Below are positions 9,500 through 56,739 of a DNA stretch of 64,000 bases, in pieces (the first letter of the stretch is position 1; the number at the start of each line of letters is the position of its first letter). The position numbers were made by a program, and so were the translations under genes. The notes beneath the pieces were generated by a model. It saw nothing but the letters and a program-made list of their open reading frames with translations, was not told the origin of the DNA and made no database searches. The stretch comes from Bryobacterales bacterium (GTDB lineage Bacteria; Acidobacteriota; Terriglobia; Bryobacterales; UBA6623). The stretch is from the NCBI GenBank assembly GCA_965248205.1, contig CBDFIS010000006.1:3337149-3401148 (forward strand), in the 5' to 3' direction.

Positions 9500-11182
9500 C
9501 TACACCACCAGCACCTGATGGTCGTGACAATCGGGACTGATCGCCCCGTACAGCCGCTCGATAAAGTCAGGTCCGTGGTGAGCGAGGAACGCAAGGACCG
9601 AATAGACTCGCTCCTGCTGGGTCTTGTTGGGATAGACCAAATTCGACAAGGCTTCGGTCTCACGCTGGACGTCCCCATTCCGGCGAAGGCTTTCGCGCAC
9701 CGCCTTGCCGCGAATCTTTCCCAACTGGTAGAGCATCTTGCCCCGCGCTGTCGAAAGGGCCGAGCTGAGGGTGGAATCGAATGCCGCCAGGCTTTCGTCG
9801 ATGGCGTGGATCGCGCTTTCGATCCCGGCCTCGCCCTGCTTGAAGGCCGTATCGAGGGCTGACGGGAGCAGCCTTTCACCCACGCGCTTGCGCAATGTCT
9901 CCGGACCCTCGAAGCAGTCGGTCACGCTCAGTTTGTGTCGCTGCAGAAAGTCGTGCGCATCGGAATCCAACACGGTGAACGAAGCCCGCGGCAAGATCAC
10001 TGGCATGCGGCCAAGCAGTCGGGTGTAGAGAACTTCTGCCTGCGCCAGATAACAGAGCTCGGTCGGCCCGGCCACGTAGGCGGCTGTCGGCAGGATGAAA
10101 TCTTGAACGACCGGGCGCAGCAACGCGTTCGGTGAGAAATTCTCCGGGCGCTCCTCCAGCCGACCAAGTAACTCCGGCACGGTATAGGAGCCGCTGCCGT
10201 CGGAATAGCCGGCGTCGGTGCGTCGCAAGACCCGACGCTGCTCTTCATCGATCAGAAACACCAGCGCCGTTTCGTCACTCACCTGAACTTGGGCATGGTA
10301 ACCGGCCCCTTCAAGGGCCCGGCCGCGTTCGACGAGAGCCGCGTCCAGCTCGGCGTTCTGCTCGATTGCCTTCCGAAACACCGGTGCCGCCACTCGGCGA
10401 ATCCCCGAGTGCATCGGATCGATCAGGATCAGGCCGTAGCGATCGAACAGACTGCGAAACAAAGCGGCGAAACTCGCACCGAAGCTTGACCCGTCGTGGT
10501 AGGTGCTCGCGGCGCGATCCAAAACGCTCTTCGCGTAGGGAGCGTTCGCCAGGGCGGCCGTGAGAGACTCTGCGGCGTCACCCCCCACTGCAACTCCGCC
10601 CACTGGCTGGTGCGGGCCGGCCTGGGCAGAAGCCTGGAGGCGGATCGGCTGCTTCTGATCGTCGAAGACCCAAACATGATCGACTTCAGCTAGATCATGA
10701 TCCTCGGTAGCGAGCCAGAAAACTGGAACGGCCGAGAGTCCTTCCGCTCGTAGCTGCTCCGCAACGCGAATCGCGGTCAACGCCTTGAAGACCGCAAAGA
10801 CCGGTCCTCCGTAGAGGCCCACTTGCTGGCCGGCTACGACGACGACGGTCCCCTCGCGGCCCAGCATGTCCAGATGAGCGGCCGTCGGCTGCCCAGCTTC
10901 GGCGTTCTGTTCACGGAGCGTCTCGACGAGCGCCCGGCGATGTGCCGGGGCGATCTGAACTCCGCTGGCCGCCGACGCGACTGCGGACGGCTGAGGCGCA
11001 TACCTGTAGTAAGCCGCGACCCGCTCAAAATCGTAAAGAAAATCGGTGAATAAGGGGGTCGAAGAGGGCAGGTCCGTATGCTTGATACAAATGCCGTTGA
11101 TGCTGCTCAAAACAACGCCTTTCCTTAATCTTTCAGAACTGCAAGCAATGGGGAAGCGGCCTGGGATTTCGGGCCGCTGCAC
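9500..11182 (-). CDS. bshC: bacillithiol biosynthesis cysteine-adding enzyme BshC-like (UPF0747)
   Basis: GQQVGLYGGPVFAVFKALTAIRVAEQL...PVFWLATEDHDLAEVDH is the hallmark BshC core. The length (560 aa) fits. The N-terminal start is uncertain. Confidence 0.7.
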   Translation of the reverse strand: MQRPEIPGRFPIACSSERLRKGVVLSSINGICIKHTDLPSSTPLFTDFLYDFERVAAYYRYAPQPSAVASAASGVQIAPAHRRALVETLREQNAEAGQPTAAHLDMLGREGTVVVVAGQQVGLYGGPVFAVFKALTAIRVAEQLRAEGLSAVPVFWLATEDHDLAEVDHVWVFDDQKQPIRLQASAQAGPHQPVGGVAVGGDAAESLTAALANAPYAKSVLDRAASTYHDGSSFGASFAALFRSLFDRYGLILIDPMHSGIRRVAAPVFRKAIEQNAELDAALVERGRALEGAGYHAQVQVSDETALVFLIDEEQRRVLRRTDAGYSDGSGSYTVPELLGRLEERPENFSPNALLRPVVQDFILPTAAYVAGPTELCYLAQAEVLYTRLLGRMPVILPRASFTVLDSDAHDFLQRHKLSVTDCFEGPETLRKRVGERLLPSALDTAFKQGEAGIESAIHAIDESLAAFDSTLSSALSTARGKMLYQLGKIRGKAVRESLRRNGDVQRETEALSNLVYPNKTQQERVYSVLAFLAHHGPDFIERLYGAISPDCHDHQVLVV

Positions 11183-19955: not shown

Positions 19956-21638
19956 TGATCTTGACCTGGAATTTCCGTTTTGGCCATCCCGCGATGGTCA
20001 GGATACTCCGATCCGCGGCTCGGGTGCAAGGTCTTCGTCTTCCTCTCACGATCGATGCTCCGTTCGCTCCCGTTTGGGTCGCTGAATGCCGCTCGATCGC
20101 CGCGTTCCAGCTCGCTGGAGGGCTTTTCGCCGACACGGCTCCGAGTAGTTCCCTCTTCAGCAACCCAGCGTCTCTTCTCCGTCGCAGCCGTCGCCCGTTA
20201 CCCGCCTGGCACAGGCAGCGCCCAGATCCGCCCCAGCATCTCAGCGAACAGCTTGCGGTTGAGATGCCCCTCGGCCAACAGCAGCCAGTAATAGCGGGCA
20301 TGCTTGACCAGCCGCCCTCCGGTTTTCATCAACCGATGCTGCAAGCTCGTCAGCGACCAGTTCTTGATCCTCTGCGCCAGCCCCAGCCGCCGCCACAGGT
20401 TCCCCAGGTTGTAGGCCAACACGCTCAACTGCAAACGCACCTCGTTTGCCCGGAAACGATGACAGGACAGCCGTGTCCAGTGGGTTGCCTGCTTGCCTTC
20501 CTTGATCCATTGCTCGGCCGTGCCGCGCTTGTTGTAGAAGCGCACCAGCGACCGACTGGGCAAGCTCATGCTCGTGACGATGAACCCGACGCGAGGAAAC
20601 AACTCGCCTTGGTGGTGCTCAACCTTGGCCACAACCCGCCGAGGCTTCGACCAACTCGCGGCCTGATAGCGGAAGCTCTTGTAGCGCACTAGTGGCTTCA
20701 GGCTCGGCCTGCCCGGCGGACGGAACAGAATCTCTTCGATCTCCAACTCCAGGTTCTTGTTTGCTGGGATGCGAATGACGTAGTCCACTCCGCGATCCTC
20801 CAACGCCTCGTAGATCTCCGGCTTGGCGAAGGCGGCGTCGGCGCGGAACGTCACTTGCTTGCCTTCTCCCTGTTGGCGCTCGATCTCGGGCAGCAGCAGT
20901 TCGTCCCAGTCCTCGGCGCTGGACACGTTACCCGCTCGCAGCTTCGCCGCCAGACAATCACCGTGCTGGTTGAACAGCAACAGCGGGTGGTAGCAGGTGG
21001 ACTCGAAATGGCCGTTGTAAGCGCTGCCTTCCTGCTGACCGTGGACCGGGCTTTCCGTGGAGTCCATATCGAGCACGACACGCTCGGACTCGTCCTGCGC
21101 TTGGGCTTGAGCGACCAACTCGCGGTTCACCGCCATCAGCCCAAGCAGGTTCTCTTCACTGGCCAGCAGCTCTGCCTCAAAGCTTTGTAGACGCGACGTA
21201 AGCGCCCCGCCGCGATCCCAGTTCTTCTTCGAGCCGATCAGACGAAAAGTCGGGTCAGCCGAGACACGGGCAGCATCGTTGAGATCCTCGTAGCCGGCGA
21301 GGCGGCTGTAGACCGATTGCCGCACCAGGTCGGCCAGTGGGAACTTCTTGTTTGTGCCTTGCCGCGAATCCGTCAGATGCTCGTCGATCAGCTTGCCCAG
21401 TCCGAGCCGCTCGTCCAGTTCCCGAATGAGAATCAGGCCACCATCCGAGGTGACGCGCGATCCTTGGAAATCGACTTTGAGAAATCCGTTGAAGGTGAGC
21501 TGAAACGGCTTGTTTTCTTTTTCACCCATTGGGTGTTGGCCTCCGTGCGTCCTGACAGGGCTTGAACCCCTATAAATAAAGACGCTGAAGGCCGCTGCAA
21601 GGTCGGGATGCCGAAATCAAATTGGAAATGCGGGTCAA
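19956..21638 (-). mobile_element. IS1380-family insertion sequence (about 1.68 kb); boundaries approximate
   Basis: The ends show gapped inverted similarity (ttgacc..atttcc..ttt..catcccg). A direct repeat ctgcgg lies at 19950-19955 and 21639-21644. The size fits the family. Confidence 0.55.
20198..21529 (-). CDS. IS1380-family transposase
   Basis: FQLTFNGFLKVDFQGSRVTSDGGLILIRELDERLGL...LVRQSVYSRLAGYEDLNDA is the characteristic IS1380 N-terminus. 443 aa. Confidence 0.85.
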   Translation of the reverse strand: MGEKENKPFQLTFNGFLKVDFQGSRVTSDGGLILIRELDERLGLGKLIDEHLTDSRQGTNKKFPLADLVRQSVYSRLAGYEDLNDAARVSADPTFRLIGSKKNWDRGGALTSRLQSFEAELLASEENLLGLMAVNRELVAQAQAQDESERVVLDMDSTESPVHGQQEGSAYNGHFESTCYHPLLLFNQHGDCLAAKLRAGNVSSAEDWDELLLPEIERQQGEGKQVTFRADAAFAKPEIYEALEDRGVDYVIRIPANKNLELEIEEILFRPPGRPSLKPLVRYKSFRYQAASWSKPRRVVAKVEHHQGELFPRVGFIVTSMSLPSRSLVRFYNKRGTAEQWIKEGKQATHWTRLSCHRFRANEVRLQLSVLAYNLGNLWRRLGLAQRIKNWSLTSLQHRLMKTGGRLVKHARYYWLLLAEGHLNRKLFAEMLGRIWALPVPGG

Positions 21639-29591: not shown

Positions 29592-30416
29592 GTGATTCTT
29601 CCCATGTCAAACGTCCACCTTACACTGCGCCTTTTGTTACTGGCTCTGAGTTGCTCGGGGGTCATGTACTGTCAAGACGAAGGCACCGATGCGGTGGAAC
29701 CCCGGTTAGACTGCGAGATTGTCGCGGGAAACAAAGATTCTAAAAGTACAGATGACATCCCGGAGGTGAGTAGTCTACAACGAATCAGGGTCCGATGCGA
29801 ACTTGTGAATGCGGGTGTTCGATCGAACCTTGTGCCGCTGGAGGCTCTTAGCATTGAGGTGACTGCGGTAGACGGCGCCGCAATCGCTAGTCTTCCAGTG
29901 AAGTTTACCTTCTCGGGAGGAGGCGGCACGCCGGAGAGGCGGCATGTATCAGCGTTGCTCCTTTTGCCCATTCCAGAGGAACAGCGGCAACAGAATATCA
30001 GGGCCTACCTGAGTCGAATGGTGGAAGTTCAAGAGTCATGGTTTGAGGAGCTTCGAACCAAGATCGATCAGATTGATCCTGAAAAGCGCTCGATCGTCGA
30101 ACAATTGCGAGAGCATTGGTCAGCTGGCGCCACCGACGGGACGGTTGAACGGGTATTGGAGGCTCGCTATGTCGAAAACCGAGTGGGCACTTTCGAAATG
30201 AGATGCCGATATCAGCCTATGCAAGTTGGTGGACCGGAAGGCGAGAAACTCACATCACGACCGGTTAGGTTTAGAGTCCGAAACGACGGGACTTTCATGG
30301 ACACTCTGATCGACGAGCTTGAGTCGCAGAAAGCCACTGGAGCCAATGAGATGTTGCGACTTTTTGATGAGATTGAATTAGAGGGACAGGGTCAAACTAA
30401 GTACACAATTTCATAA
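29592..30416 (+). CDS. secreted hypothetical protein; 3' end runs into the IS630 terminus
   Basis: Signal peptide present. GC is visibly lower than in neighbouring genes. The last five codons and the stop (KYTIS*) come from the IS630 end. Confidence 0.5.
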   Translation: MILPMSNVHLTLRLLLLALSCSGVMYCQDEGTDAVEPRLDCEIVAGNKDSKSTDDIPEVSSLQRIRVRCELVNAGVRSNLVPLEALSIEVTAVDGAAIASLPVKFTFSGGGGTPERRHVSALLLLPIPEEQRQQNIRAYLSRMVEVQESWFEELRTKIDQIDPEKRSIVEQLREHWSAGATDGTVERVLEARYVENRVGTFEMRCRYQPMQVGGPEGEKLTSRPVRFRVRNDGTFMDTLIDELESQKATGANEMLRLFDEIELEGQGQTKYTIS

Positions 30417-31681
30417 AGACACTAACGTATCTAGGCCTTGAAAGTTATGTTCTGATGTGGCACAGTGGCACGAGGGAGGTTACCCCACGTGCCTCGCAAA
30501 AGCCCTTACCACATCGTGCTCTCTTCCGCCGAAGCCCGTGAGTTACAGCGCCGTGCCTCGAAGTATACGTTATCGTATTTTCAGGTCGTTCGGGCCCAGA
30601 TGATCTTGCTTGCCGCCCAGGGCCTTTCCAACCAGGAGATCGCCCGCCGTCTGCGGACACGACGCGAGGTCGTCTGCCTGTGGCGCAAACGTTTCTACCA
30701 GCAACGTCTCGAGGGTCTCGAAGAGCGTCCGCGGTCCGGTCGGCCACGGGCCTTTCCCCCCGGAGCTGGTCGTCGAGATCAAGGCACTAGCCTGTGAACT
30801 TCCCGCCAGCCAAGACCGCCCCCTGTCTCGTTGGAGCAGCGGGGAACTGGCCCGCTATGCCTGCCAGGCTGGACTGGTGGCCAGCTTGTCGGGTAGCACC
30901 GTCTGGCGCTGGCTCCACGAAGACGCCATCCGCCCCTGGCAGCATCGCAGTTGGATCTTCCCTCGCGATCCGGATTTCGCCACCAAGGCGGGGCGTATCT
31001 TGGATCTCTACGAGCGGCAGTGGGACGGCAAGCCCCTTAGCTGCGATGAGTTCGTGCTTTCGGCCGACGAGAAGACCAGTATCCAAGCACGCCGTCGCAA
31101 GCACGCCACTCACCCCCCGCGATCCAGATCGGCCATGAAGGTGGAACATGAGTACGAACGATGTGGGGCGTGGGCCTACCTCGCTGCACTCGATGTTCAG
31201 CGTGCCAAACTCTTCGGTCGTTGCGAGTCGAAAACGGGCATCGAACCTTTTGACCGCTTGGTGGAGCAAGTCATGTCTCAACCCCCCTATGACCAGGCCC
31301 GCCGGGTGTTCTGGATCGTTGACAACGGCTCGGCGCATCGGGGCCAACGGTCGATCGTCCGTTTGAAGCAGAAGCATCCCACCCTGGTATTGGTGCACGG
31401 GCCAGTGCACGCCAGTTGGCTCAATCAAATTGAAATCTACTTTTCGATCTTGCAGCGCAAGGCCCTCACCCCCAATGATTTCGCATCGCTCGCGGCGGTG
31501 GAAGACCGCCTGTTGAGCTTCCAGCAACACTACGAGTCGATTGCGAGACCATTTGAATGGAAGTTCACTCGACGCGATCTGACCGATCTATTGCACAAGA
31601 TAAAAAGACAGCCCCACAACTCGACTCCGCTCGCCGCATAGCTGAAAATAATACGTGACCGTACTTACGAAACGGTGTACT
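30400..31681 (+). mobile_element. IS630-family insertion sequence (1282 bp) with TA target duplication
   Basis: The ends agtacacaatttc... and the reverse complement of the other end agtacaccgtttc... form imperfect IRs of about 30 bp. TA lies at 30398-30399 and 31682-31683. Confidence 0.75.
30465..31641 (+). CDS. IS630-family transposase encoded in two frames (orfA frame 30465-30797, orfB frame reported by the track as 30610-31641) joined at a C6 run
   Basis: HTH part (LSNQEIARRLRTRREVVCLWRKRF) in frame A. DDE part (ADEKTSIQAR...WIVDNGSAH...ASWLNQIEIYFS) in frame B. Frame A ends ...RPRAFPPGAG and frame B reads ...FPPELVVEIK. Removing one C from 30756-30761 gives one continuous ORF of about 391 aa. 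Confidence 0.8.
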
Positions 31682-32064
31682 TAGGATAAGTGCACGTGGC
31701 CGACGGCGGGTTGCTCGAATCGATTGCCCCCTTCAGTGGGTTCTGGGATACTAGGAATACTGCTGGGCTGGAAGGAATCGCTCTTACTATTCGTTCCTAC
31801 AGCCGGCAAAGCGGTTTCTTTTATCCCTGCGCATCGCGTCAGCGGGTCGCTCACGGGGTTACCAACATCGAGAAGTTGTTAGACCAGTCGTGCGAACAGT
31901 TGTTTCCTGCCAGTGGTCTCAGCAGAGCGGCGACGCTTCACCCGCGACAGTCGCCTTGAGGTGCGTACTCCCAAGAGGGGAGCCGGGTCTCTATTCCGAT
32001 ATAACGGGCTCAGGTTCCCTCAGTGGATCGGGCAGAAAGCTAATGGAGAGCAGAATGGAGGGCA

Positions 32065-32283
32065 GTGGCAAAAGAGGAAGGCATTGAGGTAGTCGGAACT
32101 ATCGTCGAAAAACACCCCGGCGGCATCTTCAGCGTCGAGCTAGACGACAAGCATAAAGTCCTCGCCCAGATCGCGGGCAAGCTCCGCAAGCACCGAATTC
32201 GCATCTTGACAGGCGATAGGGTGCAACTCGAGCTTTCGCCGTACGACCTTACGCGAGGTCGGATTGTTTACCGCTATCGCTGA
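32065..32283 (+). CDS. infA: translation initiation factor IF-1
   Basis: [28 protein letters not shown]...[26 protein letters not shown] has a near-canonical IF-1 length and pattern. GTG start after GGAGGG. Confidence 0.95.
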
Positions 32284-32475
32284 CGAAGCTGGCGAAATCA
32301 GCCGAAGGTTCCTTAAGCACGCGGTCCCATCCTGACTAGGACGAGCGTGGCCTGGGACTATTTGGAAGTTTAGTCGGGCTTGGGAAGGGTTGCCGGCAGC
32401 TTCTTCGATTCGTCCCAAGATCATGAGCCTGACCGAGGGTCCGCGGCAGCCCGAAGTCGCCTGTGAGGAAGCAAG

Positions 32476-32760
32476 ATGGCAAGAGCGATGTGGGAAGGCA
32501 CTGTGCTCGCCGAAAGCGACGAAGGCGTGGTGATAGAGGGGAATTACTACTTCCCGCCGGACTCCGTTCGCAAAGAACACTTGAAGCCCAGCGACCAGAC
32601 ATCGGTCTGCTTCTGGAAAGGGACAGCTCGCTACTACGATGTCGAAGTAGAGGGTAAGCATAACCCGGGGGCGGCCTGGTATTACCCCGAACCCAAAGAC
32701 GGCGCCAGTCAGATCAAAGACCACGTCGCTTTCTGGCGGGGAGTCACGGTCGAGACGTGA
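32476..32760 (+). CDS. DUF427 domain protein
   Basis: IEGNYYFPPDSV...CFWKGTARYYDV...AWYYPEP...FW is the DUF427 signature. Confidence 0.75.
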   Translation: MARAMWEGTVLAESDEGVVIEGNYYFPPDSVRKEHLKPSDQTSVCFWKGTARYYDVEVEGKHNPGAAWYYPEPKDGASQIKDHVAFWRGVTVET

Positions 32761-32878
32761 CGGTGGGCGGTTGGACATCGGCAACGGGAATCAACAAAGA
32801 GCAGGTCCTTACGATTGATGTCGCAAGGTATGCCCCCGAGCACCGGTAGCTGGCACTACTGTCTTAACGTTCACACGC

Positions 32879-33343
32879 TTAGGGATCGGCCACCGTCTCC
32901 ATGATTCGCGGTTTGCTCTGGAGAGTCTTGTACACAGGACACCGGGTTCCAATGTACGCCAAGCGTTCGCGCTGTTCCTCACTAAGGTCGCCTTCGAATT
33001 CAAGACGGACGTTGATGCGTTCCACCAAGCCGTGCTCTTCTTCGCAATCTCGGCAATCCTCCGCATGGATGCGCTCATGAGAGAGTCCCACGCTTACGTT
33101 TTCAAGCGGCCAGCCCTTGCGCCGCGCATACATGAGCAGGGTCATTCCGGTGCAGGTCCCGAGCGCACCCAGCAGGAGATCGTAGGGGTTAGGCCCCAGT
33201 CCGTCGCCGACACCCTTGGGTTCATCTGAGATCAGCCCGTGGTCTGCGGTCGCCACCAGCATTTGGTAGTTGCCGAGGCCCCTTACGGTCACTGTAGCCA
33301 TTCGTGTCTCCTCCATGAAACTGATGTGCCGAGACTGAACCAA
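32879..33343 (-). CDS. OsmC-family peroxiredoxin-like protein
   Basis: GPNPYDLLLGALGTCTGMTL and the C-terminal CPVYKTL (two conserved Cys) are typical of OsmC/Ohr. The start may be internal (MATVTV...). Confidence 0.75.
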   Translation of the reverse strand: MVQSRHISFMEETRMATVTVRGLGNYQMLVATADHGLISDEPKGVGDGLGPNPYDLLLGALGTCTGMTLLMYARRKGWPLENVSVGLSHERIHAEDCRDCEEEHGLVERINVRLEFEGDLSEEQRERLAYIGTRCPVYKTLQSKPRIMETVADP

Positions 33344-33586
33344 CTGGCGCAGCCTATCGAACTCCGATTACCCACCAGGACTCGACACCGGTACCGTTGG
33401 CTGTGCGGGAACTTTGTTCGCCGGTTCCCTGCCGACGAGCCTCAAATCTATCACAGATGTGCCAGTAGCTCCTGCGATGTTGTTGACACAACCTTGTGAT
33501 TCTGAACCCCGTCGGGAACAGCGGTGCTTGTAAACGAATGTGCGTTTTCGTAGGTTGCGCTTGACTTCGCGGGCCCAGTCGCCGTA

Positions 33587-34663
33587 GTGTCTCAGTGTAT
33601 GGTCACACAGCCGTCAGTATGGGAGGTAACCCCTGAGGTAGAGCAGGTGCGCGACCATCTGCGGCACTACTATGGCCGCCACCTAAAGAAAAGCTCTGAC
33701 CTAAGCCAAAAAGCTTGCTGCACGGAAGAGACGGAGAAACGCCACGCCGAGATCCTCGAGTTGATTCCCGAGGAGGTAAAGCAGCGGCACTACGGCTGCG
33801 GATGTCCCATTCCCGACGATGAACTCAGCGGCCTCACCGTGTTGGACCTCGGATCCGGTGCAGGCGTGGACGCCTTTATCATGGCCCACAAGGTGGGCCC
33901 CGGTGGCTTCGTTCACGGCATCGACATGACCGAGGAACAACTCGCGATCGCCGGCCAGTATGCCCCCGAAGTGGCACGCCGGTTCGGCTATCGCCGTCCG
34001 AACACGGCCTTTCACAAGGACTTCATCGAAGTGGCCGAATCGATCCCGGACGAAAGCATTGACCTCGTGATTTCGGACTGCGTCATTAACCTCTCGCCTC
34101 GCAAAGACCTTGTCTTCGAGACGATTCACAGGGTTCTCAGGAATGGTGGCGAATTCTATATTTCCGACATTGCCGCTGACCGCCGCGTGCCTGATACCAT
34201 CCGCGAGGACGAGGAACTCGTCGCGGAGTGCCTGGGTGGCGCGCAATACGAGCACGATTGGTTCGACACGATGAAGGACTGCGGCTTCACAGATCCCCGG
34301 GTTGTGCGCCGAACCATCGTACAAACCGACGCCAAGGGAGAACCGGTCATTTTCTCGTCGCTTACGGTTCGCGGGTTCAAGTTCGGAGGGCCGCTCGATC
34401 GCCGCTGCGAGGACTACGGGCAGGTTGCGGTCTACGACGGAAGTTCACCTGGCTCGCCGGCGCGCTTCCCATTCGACGACCACCACGTTTTCGAAACCGG
34501 TCGTCCAACCGCGGTTTGCCGCAATACCGCGCGCATGCTCACGGAAACCAGGCTAGGAAAGTACTTCAGCGTGACGCCCCCGGTCAAGCATTTCGGGCTG
34601 TTTGCGTGCGGAGTGACAGCGGCGACGGCGGACGGAGCCGCATCTGCCGGCAACTGCTGCTAG
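33587..34663 (+). CDS. arsM: ArsM-like As(III) S-adenosylmethionine methyltransferase
   Basis: N-terminal CC (KACCTEE), HYGCGCPIP, SAM motif VLDLGSGAGVD, DCVINLSP and ECLGGA cysteines in ArsM-like positions, C-terminal CC. The true start is possibly ATG 33599. Confidence 0.7.
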   Translation: MSQCMVTQPSVWEVTPEVEQVRDHLRHYYGRHLKKSSDLSQKACCTEETEKRHAEILELIPEEVKQRHYGCGCPIPDDELSGLTVLDLGSGAGVDAFIMAHKVGPGGFVHGIDMTEEQLAIAGQYAPEVARRFGYRRPNTAFHKDFIEVAESIPDESIDLVISDCVINLSPRKDLVFETIHRVLRNGGEFYISDIAADRRVPDTIREDEELVAECLGGAQYEHDWFDTMKDCGFTDPRVVRRTIVQTDAKGEPVIFSSLTVRGFKFGGPLDRRCEDYGQVAVYDGSSPGSPARFPFDDHHVFETGRPTAVCRNTARMLTETRLGKYFSVTPPVKHFGLFACGVTAATADGAASAGNCC

Positions 34664-34763
34664 GGCAGGCCTCGATCGTTATCGGGTTAGGCGGCCCGCT
34701 GAGCGCATCAGCGGTGTGTTCTGAGTTCTCAACCAGATTCATAGGCTGACGCGAGAAACGTCG

Positions 34764-35813
34764 ATGGTTGCACCGGAGAAAGATCAACTCATCAAAGGGA
34801 TGCTGCAGCACTATCCCTTTGTGGTGAAAAGCTTCAGGGCCTACTTCCGTAACCTCTATCGGCGCAAGGTTCTCAAATCGACGGTCGTTACTCCGTACTC
34901 GGCCATCTTCTACGCGACGCACAAGTGCAACCTCGACTGCAGCTACTGCACCCAAAAGAACCCGGAGGTCTTCAGCGAGGAAGTCTCGACGGAAAAGACG
35001 ATCGACATCTTTCGGGCTATTCGCAGGGACGTTGACACGATGGTGATCACGGGCGGTGAATGCCTGGTGAGGCCTGATATCGAAGAGTTGGTCCGCGCGG
35101 CTCGCCAAGACGTCAAATTCCGATCGCTGCTGGCCGTTACCAACGGTGTGTTGCTTGACTCCCGACGCAGCATTCTCGATCACCTCAGCGGCCTCGTCGT
35201 CAGCCTCGATGCTCTGAAACACGATCCCTCCGAGCCATTGTCGAAATCGAATGCCGTTCCGAAGGTCATCGAGAATCTCATGATGGTGAAGGAGAAGCTG
35301 CCCCCTCAGTCGGTGACGGTTAGCTGTGTACTCGAGCTGTGGAACATCGCGGAAGTTGAAAAGATTGTCGATTTCTGCCGGGAGCATGGCTTCGTTTTCT
35401 CGGTGCAATCGGCGCAGAACAACGGCAAGTACCCCAACTTCGCTTTTCTCCGGGACGACCGTTACCGAGGCTTCGTGGACAAGCTCATCGAACTGCGGCG
35501 ACAACGGGCTGTCAGGATCAACGGGACTCCCAAGCTGTTGCAGACTCTCCTGCTGTTTGAGGAGTTCAAGTGTTACCCGACGATGTTCCCGAGAATCTAC
35601 CCCAACGGAGACATCTTCTACCCGTGCGAGGTGTTGCGTAAGATTGCAGGGAACTTGCTCGAAGACGGCTCGATCGCGGCGGCCTTCGAGAGGGGACGGC
35701 GCTTGTACGGAGAAGTCCCCCAATGCAAGGCGAACTGTTACCTTTTCGGCAACGTCCTATCGTCCTACTACGTGGAGGACTTCTGGGGACTGGCCGGTGA
35801 CACCGTGCGCTAG
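34764..35813 (+). CDS. radical SAM protein with Cys-containing C-terminal (SPASM-like) region
   Basis: ATHKCNLDCSYCTQ (CxxxCxxC), ITGGECLVRPDI, and C-terminal PNGDIFYPC...QCKANC. Confidence 0.75.
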   Translation: MVAPEKDQLIKGMLQHYPFVVKSFRAYFRNLYRRKVLKSTVVTPYSAIFYATHKCNLDCSYCTQKNPEVFSEEVSTEKTIDIFRAIRRDVDTMVITGGECLVRPDIEELVRAARQDVKFRSLLAVTNGVLLDSRRSILDHLSGLVVSLDALKHDPSEPLSKSNAVPKVIENLMMVKEKLPPQSVTVSCVLELWNIAEVEKIVDFCREHGFVFSVQSAQNNGKYPNFAFLRDDRYRGFVDKLIELRRQRAVRINGTPKLLQTLLLFEEFKCYPTMFPRIYPNGDIFYPCEVLRKIAGNLLEDGSIAAAFERGRRLYGEVPQCKANCYLFGNVLSSYYVEDFWGLAGDTVR

Positions 35814-36548
35814 CCGGCGAACGCTGTAAACGGCGTGGGCGGCTGTTTCGGCCAGATGCTTACTAAAAGCTCCTACATATTCGAGATGCAGGTGGTCGCT
35901 GCCAGCCAACTTAAGCTCAAGAGTGGCAGTTGCTGCTTGATCGACTGAGTCCTCGCGAACAGGGGGGTCTTTCGCCTCAGACACATAGACCGGGCGGTAG
36001 GTTTCGCCATTAACGAGGATGCGTGCGATTTGTCGAATCGGAATGATCCAGTGCACGTTTTCAGCTCGGTCACGTGGCACGATGAGCAGTTCATTGCCGC
36101 GCAGCAGCAGATAAAGACGTGTTCCCCTTGCCAGAGGCGGCTCGTCGCGCAAGGTGCCCGAGGCATATACTCCACCGTTAAGTAGGTAATCCGCCTGGTG
36201 GAGTTTCTGCAACTTCCTTTCCCGCTCGGGATCGTAGGCTGGACCGAGCGCCACCACACACAGGAACGCCGTCGCCGCGAATCCGGCCACCCACCAGTAC
36301 GAGGCTGGGACGCTCCAGGCGAGCAATCCTAGAGCACCGAGGCCGATCGCGAACCGAATGCGGTTCCAGTCCGTGCGCCGCCGCCAGCGACGGACGAGCG
36401 GAACGAGCAGCACGAACCAAAACAGGGTGTAGAGCAGAATCCCAATCCATTTGGGAACACCGAAGGGCCGCAACGGATCCTTGGTGGGGCGTTCCCGGAG
36501 AGACGGGCCGGAACGCCGGATTTTGATTCGGGACTCTGGATTACCCAC
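35757..36548 (-). CDS. hypothetical membrane protein
   Basis: Three predicted TM helices near the N-terminus and a soluble C-terminal domain. The 3' end overlaps the convergent radical SAM gene by 57 nt. Confidence 0.5.
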   Translation of the reverse strand: MGNPESRIKIRRSGPSLRERPTKDPLRPFGVPKWIGILLYTLFWFVLLVPLVRRWRRRTDWNRIRFAIGLGALGLLAWSVPASYWWVAGFAATAFLCVVALGPAYDPERERKLQKLHQADYLLNGGVYASGTLRDEPPLARGTRLYLLLRGNELLIVPRDRAENVHWIIPIRQIARILVNGETYRPVYVSEAKDPPVREDSVDQAATATLELKLAGSDHLHLEYVGAFSKHLAETAAHAVYSVRRLAHGVTGQSPEVLHVVGR

Positions 36549-36641
36549 GGCCTGCGAACTCCCTCAAGCGTTGACCTTCAAGAATGAGACAGTAGCGGCA
36601 ACCGATGGAGGCTGTCAATGACCTCCGCGGGCACGCCGGTC

Positions 36642-36738
36642 TGTGAAAAAACCTCGGGACAGCCAACCGCAGCTAAAGACGCCATTGATTCTAAGTGACT
36701 TCTAGGACGCCGCTTGTGCTAGCCCCCGTTTTTTCACA
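36642..36738 (+). repeat. 97-nt dispersed element, family B copy 1, with 11-nt terminal inverted repeat TGTGAAAAAAC / GTTTTTTCACA
   Basis: Aligns end-to-end with 44224-44321 in the same orientation. The central block ccattgattc.aagtgacttctaggacgccgcttgtg is nearly identical. Confidence 0.75.
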
Positions 36739-36816
36739 CACCCGCATGCTGGGGTCGGATTCAAGCGCGAAATCCTAAGCGATGCCACCCGGCCCGTTTG
36801 GCAGATCAGATTCCGC

Positions 36817-36848
36817 TTGACTCTGTAGTTCACTTCAGAGTGTATCCT
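36817..36848 (+). promoter_or_regulatory. MerR-family (ZntR/CadR/PbrR-type) metal-responsive promoter: TTGACT, 20-nt spacer with dyad, TATCCT
   Basis: The -35 is at 36817-36822 and the -10 at 36843-36848. The dyad ACTCTGTAGTT/CACTTCAGAGT lies at 36820-36841. This is a strong architectural match to published MerR-type promoters. Confidence 0.6.
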
Positions 36849-36859
36849 GAGAAAAGGGA

Positions 36860-37246
36860 ATGCGGAAACCGTCGCTCAGACTGGTTGCGCTCTTTACATT
36901 GAGCCAAGTGTGTCTACTTTACGGCGGAGGATTGCTCCTAGCATACGATGAGCGATTCGGAACACAGGGAACGAGCTGTGCTCGCGCCTGTTGCCACCTG
37001 GCAAAAGCGGGATCTCCCTATGCGAAGTCGTGCTGTTCGCTTCGCTGCGGCGAGGACCCCACCGATCCCACACCGGAACCAGCCCGCGCTAAGCAGTGGT
37101 TACCGCCGGGGCTTGCCGGCGTGCAATCAGCGGACCCTCGCCCATACCTTCAAGACGCACTGAGAGGTCAACGTACCGGCCTTGCAGCTCCCGCGGAAGC
37201 TCCTGAGCAGGAGCTTTACCTGAGACATTCCATCCTTCTGGTCTAG
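36860..37246 (+). CDS. small exported or N-terminally anchored Cys-rich protein (CxxxCCH...CCxxxC)
   Basis: Hydrophobic N-terminus LRLVALFTLSQVCLLYGGGLLLA, then TSCARACCHLAKAGSPYAKSCCSLRCGE. First gene after the MerR-type promoter. Confidence 0.55.
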   Translation: MRKPSLRLVALFTLSQVCLLYGGGLLLAYDERFGTQGTSCARACCHLAKAGSPYAKSCCSLRCGEDPTDPTPEPARAKQWLPPGLAGVQSADPRPYLQDALRGQRTGLAAPAEAPEQELYLRHSILLV

Positions 37247-37324
37247 CGCCAAAGCAAGAGAGGTGAGGTGCGTCCAGTTTCGGACGTAACCCCTCGTTGC
37301 GGCGGCTTGCCTTGGAGGATTCGA

Positions 37325-38203
37325 ATGCCTATATCACGACTGTTTCGCTCAGCAATTGCCCTATCCGGGGGTGCGCTGGTGATCTTTGGTTGGTTGCCCA
37401 GAGCCGAAGGCCAGGCGATCCTCGCGCCGGGCGGCCGAACTTTGTTCAACCAGCACGTTCTGGTGCGGTCGTTCACCCGGATTGACCGTCGCACCGTACT
37501 GCGCGACGGCTCAGCGATCGGGACCACGCGCTACATCCAGCCGGTCGCGCTGGTCTACGGCTTCGCCCCAGGGTGGCACGCAACCGCTGTGACACCCTTC
37601 GTGTTCGGGGAGAGCAGCGGTCGCGGCGACTCGCGGTTCTTCGTCAAATACGACGGGCTCATCAAGAAGAATGAGCCGGGCGGGCTCACTCGCCTAGCGG
37701 CCGAGTTCGGGGTGCAAACGCCGACAGGGTCCGAGGGCTTCAGTACCGGGGCGGCGAGCTACCTGGGGGATCTGGTGTTCCTGAAGGCCAGCAAGCAACG
37801 TCATTTCCTCGCCGACGTGCAGTATGAGGCGGCGACCCGAAACAGCGACGGTGTGACGGCGGGAAACCGGGCGCTCTTCGATGTAGCGCTATCCTATCTG
37901 TTCCTGCCGGATTCGGAGAAAAGCCGATCCGGTAAAGGCAAGGGGATAGGCCGGCTCGCTCCGCACGGCGTCTTCGGCATTGTCGAGTTCAATGCCGAGC
38001 TGCGTAACCGAGCACGCGACCGCGCCGGCGCGCTGCCGAATTCCGGCGGGGGACTGCTCTACATCTCTCCAGGGATCCAATATTTCATGAAGCGAAATCT
38101 GATTCTCGAGGTGTCGGTACCCATCCCCGTGGTTCGCAACCTCAACGGCTTGCAACCCAAGCCGCAGACCGGGGTGCTCTTCGGCTTTCGATACGTTCTC
38201 TGA
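37325..38203 (+). CDS. outer-membrane beta-barrel protein (MetA-pathway/transporter-like family)
   Basis: GGAGG lies 7 nt before ATG 37325. Signal peptide MPISRLFRSAIALSGGALVIFGWLPRAEG. Alternating beta-strand pattern with a C-terminal LFGFRYVL. The family assignment is tentative. Confidence 0.6.
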   Translation: MPISRLFRSAIALSGGALVIFGWLPRAEGQAILAPGGRTLFNQHVLVRSFTRIDRRTVLRDGSAIGTTRYIQPVALVYGFAPGWHATAVTPFVFGESSGRGDSRFFVKYDGLIKKNEPGGLTRLAAEFGVQTPTGSEGFSTGAASYLGDLVFLKASKQRHFLADVQYEAATRNSDGVTAGNRALFDVALSYLFLPDSEKSRSGKGKGIGRLAPHGVFGIVEFNAELRNRARDRAGALPNSGGGLLYISPGIQYFMKRNLILEVSVPIPVVRNLNGLQPKPQTGVLFGFRYVL

Positions 38204-38226
38204 GAAACCATTAGGAGGAATACAAC

Positions 38227-38733
38227 ATGGACTGGAAACTGCTTCGGCTCACGGTGCTGGCGCTCAGCACCGTACCGGCCTTTGCGCAGGTGGAGCAGGC
38301 CGTCATTCAAGTTGACGGCATGCATTGACCGCTTTGAGCACACGGGGCCCAAAAGACCCTGCAACGCCTGGATGGCGTTGATCAAGCAACGGTGGACTTC
38401 AAGGCTGGCACGGCGGTTGTTCGGTCGAAGAAGGAGGAGAGCTTCGACCCGGAGAAGGTGCGTGAGTTCCTGAAGAAATCTGGGTTCTCGACTCCAAAAC
38501 TGGAATTGGCGGTTCGGGGCCGTGTGGAGAAATGGAAGGACATGCTTGCGCTTCGGGTGCCCGGGCTTGAGCGGGTGCTCGTCCTCGGTGGTGGGGAGAA
38601 ACTCTCGGAACTGGCCCGACAGGGCCTTCTCAGCCGCGATGTGCGGATCGAGGGCTTTCTCCATCCGCTGCATGGGGAGGAACCAAGCGGGCTGACAGTT
38701 GAGGATTTCGTCGTAGAGGAGCTGGAGCCATGA
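38227..38733 (+). CDS. periplasmic MerP-like heavy-metal-associated (HMA) protein; both CxxC positions are in-frame TGA (putative UxxU selenoprotein); about 85-aa C-terminal extension
   Basis: AGGAGG plus ATG 38227. Signal peptide ...STVPAFA/QVEQ. AVIQVDGMH-TGA(38326)-PL-TGA(38335)-AHGAQKTLQRLDGVDQATVDFKAGTAVV has the HMA fold pattern. The frame is continuous to the stop at 38731-38733. Confidence 0.55.
38362..38380 (+). other. candidate SECIS-like hairpin (7-bp perfect stem CAACGCC/GGCGTTG, loop UGGAU), 24 nt after the second TGA
   Basis: The stem was read directly. An alternative pairing of GCGTTG with CAACG (38387-38391) also exists. Not validated against a SECIS model. Confidence 0.25.
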
Positions 38734-38910
38734 AAGACAGCTCTTGACACGCGACGCTTCGCAATGGGGATCGTCGGAGTGGCAGGTGTTCCAATGCCGG
38801 TAAGCTGTCGCAGAACCGCCTTCGCAGTAGTTACGATCGAAGCGATTAGCTCTTAACCTCCGCATCAAAGAACTGAGCTGATTTCGCCGGCCAAATGGAA
38901 CCACCGAGCT

Positions 38911-40251
38911 TCACTCGCCCAGCTCTTTCTGGAACACCTCTACCAGCCGGCTCGCGTGCCGCTTGACTAGGACCTCTTCTTCGGCTTCGACCATGATTCT
39001 AACGAGCGGTTCGGTTCCCGAGTAGCGGACCAAGACGCGGCCACGATCGCCTAAGTCTTTCTCGCTGGCGGAGACAGCGTCGCGCAACGTGGGAACACCT
39101 TCGAACGGCACCTTTCCCCTGACGCGTATGTTCTCAAGGGTCTGCGGGAAGACGCTTAACTCGCTCGCGAGCTCACTCAACGGCTTGCCCGAGGCCGCAA
39201 GGATCTCCAGCATCATGCGTGCCGTGAGCAACCCGTCGCCCGTCGAGGCGAAGTCGCCGAAGATGATGTGCCCGGATTGCTCGCCGCCCAGGGCCGCGCC
39301 GCTTCGAAGCATCTCTTCCAGAACGTATTTGTCGCCGACTTTCGTGCGGCTCATCCGAATCCCCACCTTCGCGAGCGCCTTCTCTAGCCCCATATTCGCC
39401 ATCACGGTAGTCACGACTAGGCTGCCGGGGAGTCGATCTCGACCAGCAAGGTGGCGACTGGCGAGCAGTAACACGACATCACCGTTTATCAAGTTCCCCT
39501 TTTCATCGACAAACAACGCTCGGTCCGCGTCGCCGTCGAACGCGACGCCAAGATCCGCGCCGCTCTCGGCGACCCGCTGTTGCAGCGTTTCCATATGAAG
39601 CGAACCGCAATCGAGGTTGATGTTTCTTCCGTTCGGCTGGTTCGCCATCATCTCCGCTTTGACGCCCAGCCGGTTGAAGAAAGTGGGGGCCAAGCTCGAA
39701 ACGGCTCCGTTGGCACAATCGACCACGAGCTGGGTTTCGAAACGTGGCGCGGGATCGCCCACGGTTACCAGATGATCGACGTACTTCTCGATGAGGGATC
39801 CATCTGCTTCCAGGGCGCCTCGACGAGGCCGGCAGTTTTCGCTCAACGCGCGGAAGATCGCAGCCTCGACGCGCTCTTCTTCTTCATCGGGCAACTTGTA
39901 TCCGGACGATCCGAAGACCTTGATTCCGTTGTCCGAAAATGCATTGTGCGACGCCGAGATCATTACGCCCCTTACGAAGTCACCCTTCTCTGTCAGATGA
40001 GCGACACCGGCCGTGGGCATGACCCCCCCGAATTTGACGACGACGACGCCGTGCTCGAGTCCGGCGGCCAGTAGCTCCGCGAGTTGCAAGCCGGATTCGC
40101 GGGTGTCCATCCCGATAAGCACTTCGGGCCGCCGGCCCGCGGAAACAGTTTGGGCTAGGGCCAAACCCGCAGCGAAAACGGTTCGATCATCGAGGGGCGG
40201 CTCGCCGGCTCGGCCGCGGATGCCATCGGTGCCGAATAGTTTTCTTGGCAT
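38911..40251 (-). CDS. glmM: phosphoglucosamine mutase
   Basis: LFGTDGIRG, active-site SASHNAFSDNGIK, full-length pattern. Confidence 0.92.
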   Translation of the reverse strand: MPRKLFGTDGIRGRAGEPPLDDRTVFAAGLALAQTVSAGRRPEVLIGMDTRESGLQLAELLAAGLEHGVVVVKFGGVMPTAGVAHLTEKGDFVRGVMISASHNAFSDNGIKVFGSSGYKLPDEEEERVEAAIFRALSENCRPRRGALEADGSLIEKYVDHLVTVGDPAPRFETQLVVDCANGAVSSLAPTFFNRLGVKAEMMANQPNGRNINLDCGSLHMETLQQRVAESGADLGVAFDGDADRALFVDEKGNLINGDVVLLLASRHLAGRDRLPGSLVVTTVMANMGLEKALAKVGIRMSRTKVGDKYVLEEMLRSGAALGGEQSGHIIFGDFASTGDGLLTARMMLEILAASGKPLSELASELSVFPQTLENIRVRGKVPFEGVPTLRDAVSASEKDLGDRGRVLVRYSGTEPLVRIMVEAEEEVLVKRHASRLVEVFQKELGE

Positions 40252-40276: not shown

Positions 40277-40930
40277 TTATTCGCTAATGTTCACTTCAAC
40301 CGTGACAGATGCATCTCCATCGAAGCGCAGGTAGGGGTCGGGGAGGTAAGCGGTCGTAGAGACCGTGTGTGTGCCGACCAGGCCTGCAATGGAAATGGGG
40401 TCTGTTGTCACCTGAGCGAGCAGGGCTACCCGCCGCTCCGGACCGACGATGACCAACCGAGGAGGCTCGACGCGGAAAGAAGAGACTGCTCGGGAATCGG
40501 CCGCCGCTCCCACGAAGATGGGTTGAACCGGCACTTCCCGGCGGCCCTGTCTCTCCAAGGACAGGCGCAACTGGGAAGGGACGGCTCGTATCAGATCAAG
40601 ACCGTCGGGGAGAGTTAAGCTTTCGCCGGTCACATCGAACGTTTGCTCGCCGGCTTTGCTCACGCCGGCGAAGTCAATTTGCACCGCCGCCCCTTGCCGC
40701 TGCAATTCCTCCAGGCGGCCGCGCGGTCCCCTGACGACAACCGTCACATGGTGGGCTTGGTCGGGATTAAACTCCAATTCCGCCGGCACATTGACATAGT
40801 TGATACGCGCTTCGAGGACGGTCTCGACTTTCGGCTGGCTTCGAACCAGGCCCCAGAGCAGAACGGCGATCCCGACTGCAATTAGTTTGGGACCGATATT
40901 GCGCCCCGGCCGCTTTCTGGTCCACGCCAT
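40277..40930 (-). CDS. cdaR: YbbR-domain protein (CdaR-like regulator of diadenylate cyclase)
   Basis: N-terminal TM helix followed by YbbR-like repeats. Position between cdaA and glmM matches the known operon. Confidence 0.65.
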   Translation of the reverse strand: MAWTRKRPGRNIGPKLIAVGIAVLLWGLVRSQPKVETVLEARINYVNVPAELEFNPDQAHHVTVVVRGPRGRLEELQRQGAAVQIDFAGVSKAGEQTFDVTGESLTLPDGLDLIRAVPSQLRLSLERQGRREVPVQPIFVGAAADSRAVSSFRVEPPRLVIVGPERRVALLAQVTTDPISIAGLVGTHTVSTTAYLPDPYLRFDGDASVTVEVNISE

Positions 40931-40944
40931 AGGAAAGTCCTGGG

Positions 40945-41826
40945 CTAGCGGGTCTCCGCCGAACTGGCACGAGAAGAGGTCTCCGCGTAGGCCACTGCCC
41001 GCGACGCTTTCTGGACCTGAGGTTGAGTCGTTTCGATCCCGCGCGGGGATGATACGACGGGGCCAAAAGACTCAATCAGCCTTTCACGAAGCCGATCGAG
41101 GGTGACATCTCGTTCAATGCTGCCGGCGGCAGCGACTGAGACTTGCCCATCCGCTTCGGAGACGACGATCGCCAGACAATCACCTTCTTCCGAGATGCCG
41201 ATCGCAGCTCGGTGACGCGTACCGAGAGAGCTGATCTGACCAGGATTGGTCGTCAACGGAAGAAAGCAGGCCGCCGCGGCGATTCGGCCCCGCCGAATGA
41301 TAACCGCCCCGTCGTGCAGCGGAGAGCCGCGATCAAAGATGCTCTCCAGGAGGTCAGTCGAAAGGTGCGCATCAAGCGCAACTCCGCTCTGAACGAAAGT
41401 CCCCAGGCCGGTTTCTCGCTCCAGCACAATCAGGACGCCCACATGCTGTTGCGACAGATGGCCGACGGCGAGAACGACGTCCTCGTACTCGTGGAACGCC
41501 TTCTTTCGTCGTCCCGAGGGCAGGAATTGCAGGGCAAATTGCCGCAAGGCGCGGCGGATTTCGGGTTGAAATATCACGATCAGGGCGATGATCGTGTAAG
41601 GGGCCAACGAGCCGATTAGCCTATGGACCATCTCGAGACCCATGGCCCCGGAGACGTAGTAAACACCACCCAGCAAAGCAAGGCCCAGGACGATGGGAGC
41701 CGCCCGGGTTCCTCGCAATACCACGATCAGCTGGTAGGCCAGATAGCTGAGGACAACGATCTCGAGTACCGCGCGGGCTAGCGCGACCGGCCCTCCGGTC
41801 ACGACTTCGTTGACGAGTTCCCACAT
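40945..41826 (-). CDS. cdaA: diadenylate cyclase CdaA (DisA_N/DAC domain)
   Basis: Three N-terminal TM helices; DAC motifs SPLHDGAVII and GTRHRAAIGISE. Confidence 0.88.
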   Translation of the reverse strand: MWELVNEVVTGGPVALARAVLEIVVLSYLAYQLIVVLRGTRAAPIVLGLALLGGVYYVSGAMGLEMVHRLIGSLAPYTIIALIVIFQPEIRRALRQFALQFLPSGRRKKAFHEYEDVVLAVGHLSQQHVGVLIVLERETGLGTFVQSGVALDAHLSTDLLESIFDRGSPLHDGAVIIRRGRIAAAACFLPLTTNPGQISSLGTRHRAAIGISEEGDCLAIVVSEADGQVSVAAAGSIERDVTLDRLRERLIESFGPVVSSPRGIETTQPQVQKASRAVAYAETSSRASSAETR

Positions 41827-55410: not shown

Positions 55411-56739
55411 CAGTGCTGTCCGGGGAAAGTCGCGCCATCGGACGGTAAGTCTCGACCGTTCAATGTCTTATGGCCTGTTTTGCCCGGGAACGATTTGAAA
55501 TCCCGAGGCCGCAAATGGTCGCCTGAACGGAGCATCCGGACGCGGCACAATGAGGGATGAACCTTGGCCGTACGGTTTTCTCCCAACTGATCGAGCACCT
55601 ACCGAGCAAAGAGTTTCAGAAATGTGTATCGCGCTACCGCGGCGATTCCTATCTGAAAAGTTTCTCCTGCTGGGATCAGTTTCTTGCGATGGCATTCGCC
55701 CAGCTGACCTATCGGGCAAGCCTCCGCGACATCGAGACGTGCCTGCGTTCGATGCACGGCAAACTCTACCACATGGGATTCCGCGGCAGGGTAGCGCGCT
55801 CGACACTGGCCGACGCGAACGAGTCGCGCGACTGGCGGATCTACGCGGACTTCGCGCAGGTCTTGATTGGCATGGCACGGCCGTTATATGCCCACGACCC
55901 GATCGGTGTGGACTTGGACCAGACTCTGTACGCTCTCGACTCGACAACAATCGACCTCTGCCTGTCGCTGTTTCCGTGGGCGAGATTCCGCAAGCAAAAA
56001 GCCGCCGTGAAGATGCACACGCTGCTGGATCTGCACGGCAATATTCCCACGTTCATCCGCATTACTGGAGGCAAAGTGCACGACATCAACATCCTCGACG
56101 AGATCGGCCCGGAGGCCGGCGCGTTCTACGTCATGGATCGGGCCTACGTCGATTTCGAACGCCTCTTCGTGTTCACTCTCTGCTCGTCGTTCTTCGTCGT
56201 GCGAACCAAGAAGAACATCTTGCTCCAACGGCGCTACTCGCATCCCGTCGACAAATCCACGGGCTTGCGCTCGGATCAGACCGTCATACTGGCTGCCATC
56301 GAATCGGCCCAAGCCTATCCCGACCCGTTGCGGAGGGTCAGTTACTTCGACGCCCGGACGAACAAGCGGCTGAAGTTTCTGACCAACAACTTCGCGCTCC
56401 CGGCGCTGACCATCGCCCACATCTACAAGTCGCGTTGGCAGATTGAGTTGTTCTTCAAGTGGATCAAGCAACATCTGCGAATCAACTCGTTTTACGGCAC
56501 CAGCGAGAACGCCGTCAAGACGCAGATCTGGATCGCTGTCTCGATTTACGTGCTCATCGCCATCGTCCGGAAACGCCTCGGGCTGGAAGCGAGTCTTTAC
56601 CAGATTCTACAGATTCTCAGCGTTACGCAATTCGAAAAAATGCCCCTTTTACAGGCACTCCAGCCATCCGACTCCCCAAACGAATCCCCCTATGACCCCA
56701 ACCAATTGATTCTATTCGACTTTTAACCGGACAGCAGTG
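55411..56739 (+). mobile_element. IS4-family insertion sequence, copy 2, 9-bp target duplication GCCCAGCCT
   Basis: Direct repeats at 55402-55410 and 56740-56748. Same ends and ORFs as copy 1. Confidence 0.9.
55557..56726 (+). CDS. IS4-family DDE transposase
   Basis: Protein identical to 8182-9351. Confidence 0.9.
   Translation: MNLGRTVFSQLIEHLPSKEFQKCVSRYRGDSYLKSFSCWDQFLAMAFAQLTYRASLRDIETCLRSMHGKLYHMGFRGRVARSTLADANESRDWRIYADFAQVLIGMARPLYAHDPIGVDLDQTLYALDSTTIDLCLSLFPWARFRKQKAAVKMHTLLDLHGNIPTFIRITGGKVHDINILDEIGPEAGAFYVMDRAYVDFERLFVFTLCSSFFVVRTKKNILLQRRYSHPVDKSTGLRSDQTVILAAIESAQAYPDPLRRVSYFDARTNKRLKFLTNNFALPALTIAHIYKSRWQIELFFKWIKQHLRINSFYGTSENAVKTQIWIAVSIYVLIAIVRKRLGLEASLYQILQILSVTQFEKMPLLQALQPSDSPNESPYDPNQLILFDF

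Follow-up and report, generated by a model that had tools for sequence, protein, structure and literature searches.

When a gene for an arsenic methyltransferase lies directly upstream of a gene for a radical S-adenosylmethionine (SAM) enzyme, do the two act together to make an organoarsenical, or are they just neighbours? This question is raised by a locus of a Bryobacterales bacterium (assembly GCA_965248205.1, contig CBDFIS010000006.1), in a stretch of 64 kb that is called the window when it is meant as a whole. The initial annotation of the window had proposed that an arsM-like gene and the radical SAM gene following it may be a functional organoarsenical pair. The evidence gathered here makes it probable, instead, that a stand-alone arsM gene was placed by a lineage-specific rearrangement beside an unrelated radical SAM gene in one Bryobacterales lineage. 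The elements on which the argument turns are as follows.

33587-34663, + strand: open reading frame (ORF) of 358 residues for an arsM-type As(III) SAM methyltransferase, from the ORF listing and homology.
34664-34763, + strand: spacer of 100 nucleotides between arsM and the radical SAM gene, with a GC-rich hairpin at 34696-34714.
34764-35813, + strand: radical SAM ORF of 349 residues, with a PF04055 match and the motif CNLDCSYC.
35757-36548, - strand: membrane-anchored protein of 263 residues with a PH-like domain seen in its predicted structure and with no Pfam family.

How often, then, do the two genes stand together in other genomes? Loci of the radical SAM gene were collected by an alignment scan over one genome per GTDB species and by direct look-ups, and their 10-kb flanks were inspected. 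At least 54 other loci carry a clear orthologue of the radical SAM gene (54-96% identity), and they belong to Acidobacteriota except for two bins labelled Actinomycetota. Only three of the 54 (L006, L007 and L009) have an arsM homologue at a distance of 10 kb or less, leaving 51 loci with no such neighbour. Because their radical SAM proteins are 95-96% identical to that of the window, these three come from the same species-level lineage as the window itself. In the next-closest relatives, with radical SAM proteins of 83%, 80% and 78% identity, the upstream gene is a different one each time, and over the whole collection the upstream neighbour varies by lineage: peptidase M10, Memo, a divergent glmM, MBL-PilZ or hpnI, with several unannotated genes besides. 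As an observation on this slot, the orthologue of GCA_942492705.1 (L173 4796-7053, contig CALOFX010000039.1) starts 3 nucleotides after a Memo-family (PF01875) gene.

The same picture emerges from the side of arsM. None of six arsM-orthologue loci outside the sister lineage (L169, L170, L171, L172, L089 and L090; 54-77% identity) has a comparable radical SAM gene nearby, and no ars genes are nearby in any of them. In L170, which comes from a 6.9-Mb genome, arsM immediately adjoins the gene for the 263-residue protein and glmM, and a radical SAM gene is absent from between them, and in GCA_942492705.1 arsM and the radical SAM gene share a contig but stand 12.3 kb apart on opposite strands. Thus, each of the two genes is kept in places where the other is missing. 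The expectation that the pair would be conserved across genomes, the lack of which the initial annotation had named as grounds against it, has therefore failed, in that the two are neighbours in one lineage only, and for this reason they most likely have nothing to do with each other in function. What stands just upstream of the radical SAM gene differs in each lineage examined, and in the window's lineage this slot would be occupied by DUF427 and arsM by chance.

What kind of surroundings would allow such a placement? The features that bear on this question are listed here.

30465-31641, + strand: IS630-type transposase in two ORFs, with HTH_29/HTH_23 matches and a translation that resembles the DDE_3 transposases of L007 and L008.
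32476-32760, + strand: DUF427 gene, from Pfam.
32879-33343, - strand: OsmC-like gene, from Pfam.
36860-38203: two small ORFs, of 128 and 311 residues, of a 2.3-kb insert that runs from the gene of the 263-residue protein to glmM.

Besides the IS630-type element there are three IS4-type transposase genes of 389 residues each (DUF4372 and DDE_Tnp_1; 8182-9351 on the + strand, 55557-56726 on the + strand and 61565-62734 on the - strand), equal in length and identical in their first 50 residues, and an IS1380-type transposase gene at 20198-21529 on the - strand. Five insertion sequence (IS) genes in 64 kb point to a very plastic region, and this fits frequent rearrangement. Differences are seen even within the lineage: the 95-96% relatives L006, L007 and L009 have DUF427 along with arsM but no OsmC, so that the window has an extra OsmC gene upstream of arsM as well as the 2.3-kb insert, which parts the gene of the 263-residue protein from glmM, whereas in L009 and seven further Bryobacterales loci nothing stands between those two genes. 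As for the contents of this insert, the 128-residue ORF is Cys-rich and secreted-looking, and the 311-residue protein resembles a MetA-pathway outer-membrane protein.

Several points weigh against reading the arrangement as an accident of one lineage. Both collection scans sampled the loci and did not cover them all. In three Bryobacterales lineages, no more than 12 kb parts arsM from the region of glmM, the 263-residue protein and the radical SAM gene, and a loose regional linkage therefore predates the window's lineage. The initial annotation was right that the radical SAM gene begins 100 nucleotides downstream of arsM on the same strand, with CNLDCSYC and a Cys-rich C-terminal region in its product, and this is the layout of genes that may be transcribed together. 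A hairpin does stand between them, beginning 33 nucleotides past the arsM stop codon, and a promoter and terminator scan places a terminator-like site in the spacer, but the region has as many such sites as shuffling it would give; the spacer in full folds no better than its shuffles (z -0.8), and the hairpin, suggestive at most, is statistically chance-like. Among the 95-96% relatives the spacer has diverged while, by eye, an inverted repeat follows right after the arsM stop in each. Because the hairpin is such weak evidence, arsM and the radical SAM gene could still be co-transcribed.

The last of these points comes from other genomes altogether. On some metagenome contigs, ArsM-family domains are found in one long ORF with radical SAM or SPASM-like regions (L138:8222-10642, L134:8537-11449, L136:536-3622, L130:8501-10981 and L147:1970-5317). 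The two of them that were scanned, L138 and L134, are not ArsS-type, and that of L134 also has an MbdU-like C-terminus. Furthermore, two loci (L113:11086-12015 and L156:1301-2185) have an unfused radical SAM gene, 'Rv1681-like', about 120 nucleotides after arsM. With radical SAM domains other than ArsS fused or adjacent to ArsM, partnerships beyond ArsS and ArsL become plausible in general. Still, for new arsenic chemistry such fusions are better candidates than the window.

If arsM is not its partner, with what does the radical SAM enzyme work? Its only Pfam match is PF04055 (E 3e-16; 60.4 bits against a cut-off of 29.5). No NCBIfam model is reached at its cut-off, MoaA (74 bits) and PTO1314 (69 bits) being the best, and the HpnH model TIGR03470 gives 45.3 bits, below its 225. 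Homologues number 735, of which the best 120 share 58-96% identity and, where named, come from Bryobacterales, Terriglobia or Acidobacteria. In an alignment of 31 homologues with a mean column identity of 72%, CNLDCSYC and C205, C270, C288, C321 and C325 are invariant. The AlphaFold2 (AF2) model has a pLDDT of 74, with the last 28 residues below 50, and a Foldseek search with it retrieves SkfB, PqqE, MoaA, SuiB, viperin, BlsE and anSME at TM of about 0.5 (0.5-0.56), which are generic radical SAM folds and no specific functional match; the sugar-modifying enzymes BlsE, SpeY and AbmM are among the matches too. SkfB is also the top PDB match by sequence (E 1.6e-10). From its sequence, this enzyme is assigned to an uncharacterised family with a Cys-rich, twitch/SPASM-like C-terminal region, sampled almost only in Acidobacteriota. 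The CxxxCxxC motif would hold the [4Fe-4S] cluster that generates the 5'-deoxyadenosyl radical, and four invariant C-terminal Cys (C270, C288, C321 and C325) probably hold an auxiliary cluster. In the literature on ArsM with radical SAM and Acidobacteria, or on cdaA/glmM with radical SAM, nothing was found on this radical SAM family.

A more constant companion than arsM is the 263-residue protein encoded downstream: in 45 of the 54 other loci, a member of its family is encoded no more than 3 kb from the radical SAM gene. Homology joins the Bryobacterales form to the Terriglobia form of 214-222 residues, at an hhalign probability of 99.1% (E 4e-19). In the AF2 model of the 263-residue protein (pLDDT 78.5), three helices at the N-terminus are combined with a beta-sandwich like that of PH domains, and with this model Foldseek finds PH/PTB domains only weakly (E about 2e-3). 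In Bryobacterales its gene is the last one of a cdaA-ybbR-glmM block, with the radical SAM gene on either side of the block, and glmM adjoins it in L001-L003, L008, L009, L011-L013, L015, L016, L051, L052 and L170. The block in the window, recognised from the translations, is composed of three genes.

38911-40251, - strand: glmM.
40277-40930, - strand: ybbR/cdaR-like gene.
40945-41826, - strand: cdaA.

The two partner genes are convergent in the window and overlap tail-to-tail by 57 nucleotides (35757-35813), and a similar overlap, of 56-74 nucleotides, is found in about ten loci, among them L006-L009, L011, L012, L017, L051 and L052. Across the overlap both C-termini are kept, ...FWGLAGDTVR on the radical SAM strand and ...SPEVFHVIGR on the opposite one, and the C-terminus of the 263-residue protein differs in several lineages in which the genes do not overlap. 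For all three proteins (the methyltransferase, the radical SAM enzyme and the 263-residue protein), the closest relatives are found in metagenome-assembled genomes (MAGs) of Bryobacterales. By this conserved neighbourhood, the genomic partner of the radical SAM enzyme is the convergent PH-like membrane protein near cdaA-ybbR-glmM, and not arsM. An unlikely further reading is that the two represent an undescribed envelope-modifying system, largely confined to Acidobacteriota and independent of arsenic. Our best guess, held with low confidence, is that the substrate is a molecule of the cell envelope, for example an amino-sugar or the side chain of a hopanoid.

Can the substrate be defined further? 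One proposal is that the target of the radical SAM enzyme is the polar side chain of bacteriohopanepolyols, or else a related amino-sugar lipid. In four Terriglobia species it is encoded by the last gene of a cluster hpnJ-eamA-eamA-hpnI-radical SAM (L004/L005 4417-9062; L026, L032 and L044), where HpnJ reaches 692 bits (cut-off 578) and HpnI 361 (cut-off 310); this is a side-chain cluster for hopanoids of the BHT-glucosamine/cyclitol ether type with ArnE/F-like small transporters. In Bryobacterales the gene lies near glmM, which serves glucosamine-1-phosphate synthesis, and both the distant similarity to HpnH (45 bits) and the structural similarity to BlsE, SpeY and AbmM point in the same direction. 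However, of some 36 Terriglobia loci no more than 4 have hpnI next to the gene, while in most of the others what stands upstream, MBL-PilZ and a CDF transporter, is unrelated, and a hopanoid role is therefore only a lead. glmM is, moreover, a housekeeping gene, and the fold matches are generic, with the peptide-modifying SkfB, PqqE and SuiB scoring equally well. We regard this proposal as unlikely for the enzyme of the window, and as a general explanation of the family the hopanoid link was rejected, hpnI being next to the gene in those four species only.

Is the methyltransferase a true ArsM, in the first place? All the hallmarks that the initial annotation had pointed out are there, in a protein that is homologous to ArsM over its full length: KACCTEE, HYGCGCP, VLDLGSGAGVD, DCVINLSP, ECLGGA and a C-terminal ...GNCC. 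The true start is probably the ATG at 33599, as M5 hardly varies among the orthologues. In a phmmer search of the PDB, CrArsM of Chlamydomonas reinhardtii (5evj) is matched over residues 17-357 (E 6.8e-74) and CmArsM of Cyanidioschyzon merolae (4fr0/4kw7) over residues 20-343 (E 2e-66), with 43-44% identity to these solved algal structures. The four catalytic Cys, C44, C71, C165 and C215, align with C44, C72, C174 and C224 of CmArsM and are invariant in 28 orthologues of 61-92% identity. In Pfam the protein belongs to Methyltransf_31 (E 1e-29). By this homology the gene is accepted as a genuine-looking arsM. As(III) would be bound through C165 and C215, while C44 and C71 would be needed for the first methylation, and the enzyme is expected to move methyl groups stepwise from SAM to give mono-, di- and trimethylated arsenic. 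Orthologues that are 62-77% identical occur widely; most of those with a name belong to Bryobacterales, and one MAG each is labelled Planctomycetota, Latescibacterota or Elusimicrobia. In the Bryobacterales-type clade the C-terminal domain carries extra Cys (C274, C311, C341, C357 and C358, with the terminal CC among them) that are invariant or nearly so, whereas the solved algal ArsMs have alanine or other residues at these positions. These extra Cys may provide an additional metalloid-binding or redox site.

The methyltransferase could, on the other hand, be ArsM-like in fold and act on another soft metalloid or on a thiol (Sb, Se, Te or a dithiol metabolite). It falls below every curated NCBIfam cut-off for ArsM, with 174 bits against 263 for its top family NF008823 (arsenite methyltransferase), 140 against 500 for the arsinothricin-type model and 108 against 400 for the arsenosugar-type one. 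The locus has no ars context, the invariant C274, C311, C357 and C358 are lacking in the algal enzymes, and the Latescibacterota orthologue adjoins Cus/Czc-type metal efflux genes. Nevertheless, the four As(III)-binding or catalytic Cys and the three-domain architecture are kept, at the identity given above to ArsMs that have been studied biochemically. It is to be noted that ArsM relatives adjoining bona fide ArsS genes reach just 190-210 bits on NF008823, and since they too fall short, this cut-off is not discriminating for ArsM of the long type. For the same reason, the shortfall was dropped as a proof that the methyltransferase lies outside the 'biosynthetic' ArsM clades. Taken together, a substrate other than arsenic is quite improbable.

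Does the absence of ars genes tell us something about the locus? The initial annotation had noted that arsR, arsB/acr3, arsC and arsH are not nearby, and indeed ArsR, ArsB/Acr3, ArsC and ArsH were not found by Pfam and NCBIfam in the 7 nearest and 20 further ORFs of the 64 kb, a scan that covered ORFs of at least 90 residues apart from a few that were recognised by eye. The absence is firm for about 10 kb on each side, and good, though not exhaustive, over the whole window. In the database of a global survey, two thirds of Acidobacteria are reported to carry ArsM but no inorganic ars pathway (PMC9582695), and as ArsM without an ars operon is thus common in this group, the missing genes are unremarkable. 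A stand-alone arsM would be the usual arsenic handling of soil Acidobacteria that have no ars operon, and that of the window is one more of this type, which dominates there.

Other searches of the surroundings can be told briefly. An Rfam scan of 31500-38500 with E up to 1 gave a single chance miRNA match and no riboswitch upstream of arsM or of the radical SAM gene. A repeat search of 30000-39000 gave one weak 24-nucleotide family and one 22-nucleotide inverted repeat (36631-36749), and nothing meaningful. An ORF of 379 residues antisense to the radical SAM gene (34584-35723) was set aside as a shadow ORF of a GC-rich gene. At a distance, at 9500-11182 on the - strand, lies a gene for a homologue of BshC, an enzyme of bacillithiol biosynthesis (Pfam E 1e-83), which suggests a low-molecular-weight thiol of the bacillithiol type in this acidobacterium.

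Could the radical SAM enzyme be a known arsenic enzyme after all? Membership in ArsS was taken as at least 300 bits on TIGR04167, and three true ArsS proteins encoded beside ArsM relatives (L163, L140 and L105), used as positive controls, score 431-462 bits. Of the 58 families matched by the radical SAM protein, the 25 best, down to an E of 4.4e-9, do not include TIGR04167, and a BLASTP comparison with the ArsS of L140 aligns only the surroundings of CxxxCxxC (29% identity over 63 residues). The initial doubt that the protein is an ArsS was thus well founded. What defines ArsL is an As(III)-binding RCCLKC motif at its C-terminus (bioRxiv 10.1101/2024.02.01.577332). The C-terminus of the window protein, ...YYVEDFWGLAGDTVR (ending ...WGLAGDTVR), has no RCCLKC tail, and NF040542 (ArsL) is not among its 25 best NCBIfam families. 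Judged by these models and motifs, the enzyme is neither ArsS nor ArsL.

That the two genes are a module in which the radical SAM enzyme forms a C-As bond by a new chemistry and ArsM methylates the product or a precursor, to give a novel organoarsenical, is very unlikely, for the shared strand, the 100-nucleotide gap, the adjacency retained in the three sister-lineage loci, the precedents of ArsM/ArsS and ArsM/ArsL and the non-ArsS fusions in metagenomes are set against the lack of adjacency in 51 of the 54 radical SAM loci and in all six independent arsM loci, an arsM family that reaches MAGs labelled Planctomycetota, Latescibacterota and Elusimicrobia while the sampled radical SAM orthologues are almost only from Acidobacteriota, the arsM of L170 sitting in the same slot with no radical SAM gene, a radical SAM protein with no ArsL-like As-binding Cys tail and no ArsS-type similarity past the cluster motif, and a conserved partner that is another gene. 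It is just as hard to credit that arsM and a twitch-type radical SAM gene, recently brought together in this one Bryobacterales lineage, have since been recruited into a module making a new organoarsenical, in parallel to the metagenome fusions of ArsM with radical SAM domains other than ArsS. If true, this module would be a third route to natural organoarsenicals, but the evidence speaks against it. The radical SAM enzyme and the PH-like membrane protein near cdaA-glmM, on the other hand, are a well-conserved uncharacterised pair, possibly worth a study of lipids or the envelope in a strain that can be cultured.

How does the locus finally compare with known systems? With the ArsM/ArsL pair of arsinothricin synthesis it shares an ArsM-family gene beside a radical SAM gene, but not an arsQ-like permease. 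The ArsM/ArsS pair of arsenosugar synthesis is also resembled, in that an ArsM-family gene is followed on its own strand by a radical SAM gene with CxxxCxxC; the difference is that TIGR04167 is missing from the 25 best families of the radical SAM protein and that the adjacency is not conserved. To the algal ArsMs (4fr0/4fs8 and 5evj) the methyltransferase is alike in its full-length alignment over three domains, in the four Cys and in the SAM-binding motif, while it comes from a bacterial (Bryobacterales) clade and scores below the curated NCBIfam cut-offs. The radical SAM enzyme, for its part, resembles SkfB, PqqE, MoaA, SuiB and BlsE in having a partial TIM barrel and a Cys-bearing C-terminal extension. 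However, its identity to them is 15-22%, no SPASM or twitch model of Pfam or NCBIfam is reached at its cut-off, genes for a precursor peptide or a cofactor pathway are absent from the vicinity of the radical SAM gene, and the conserved partner is a PH-like protein of the membrane.

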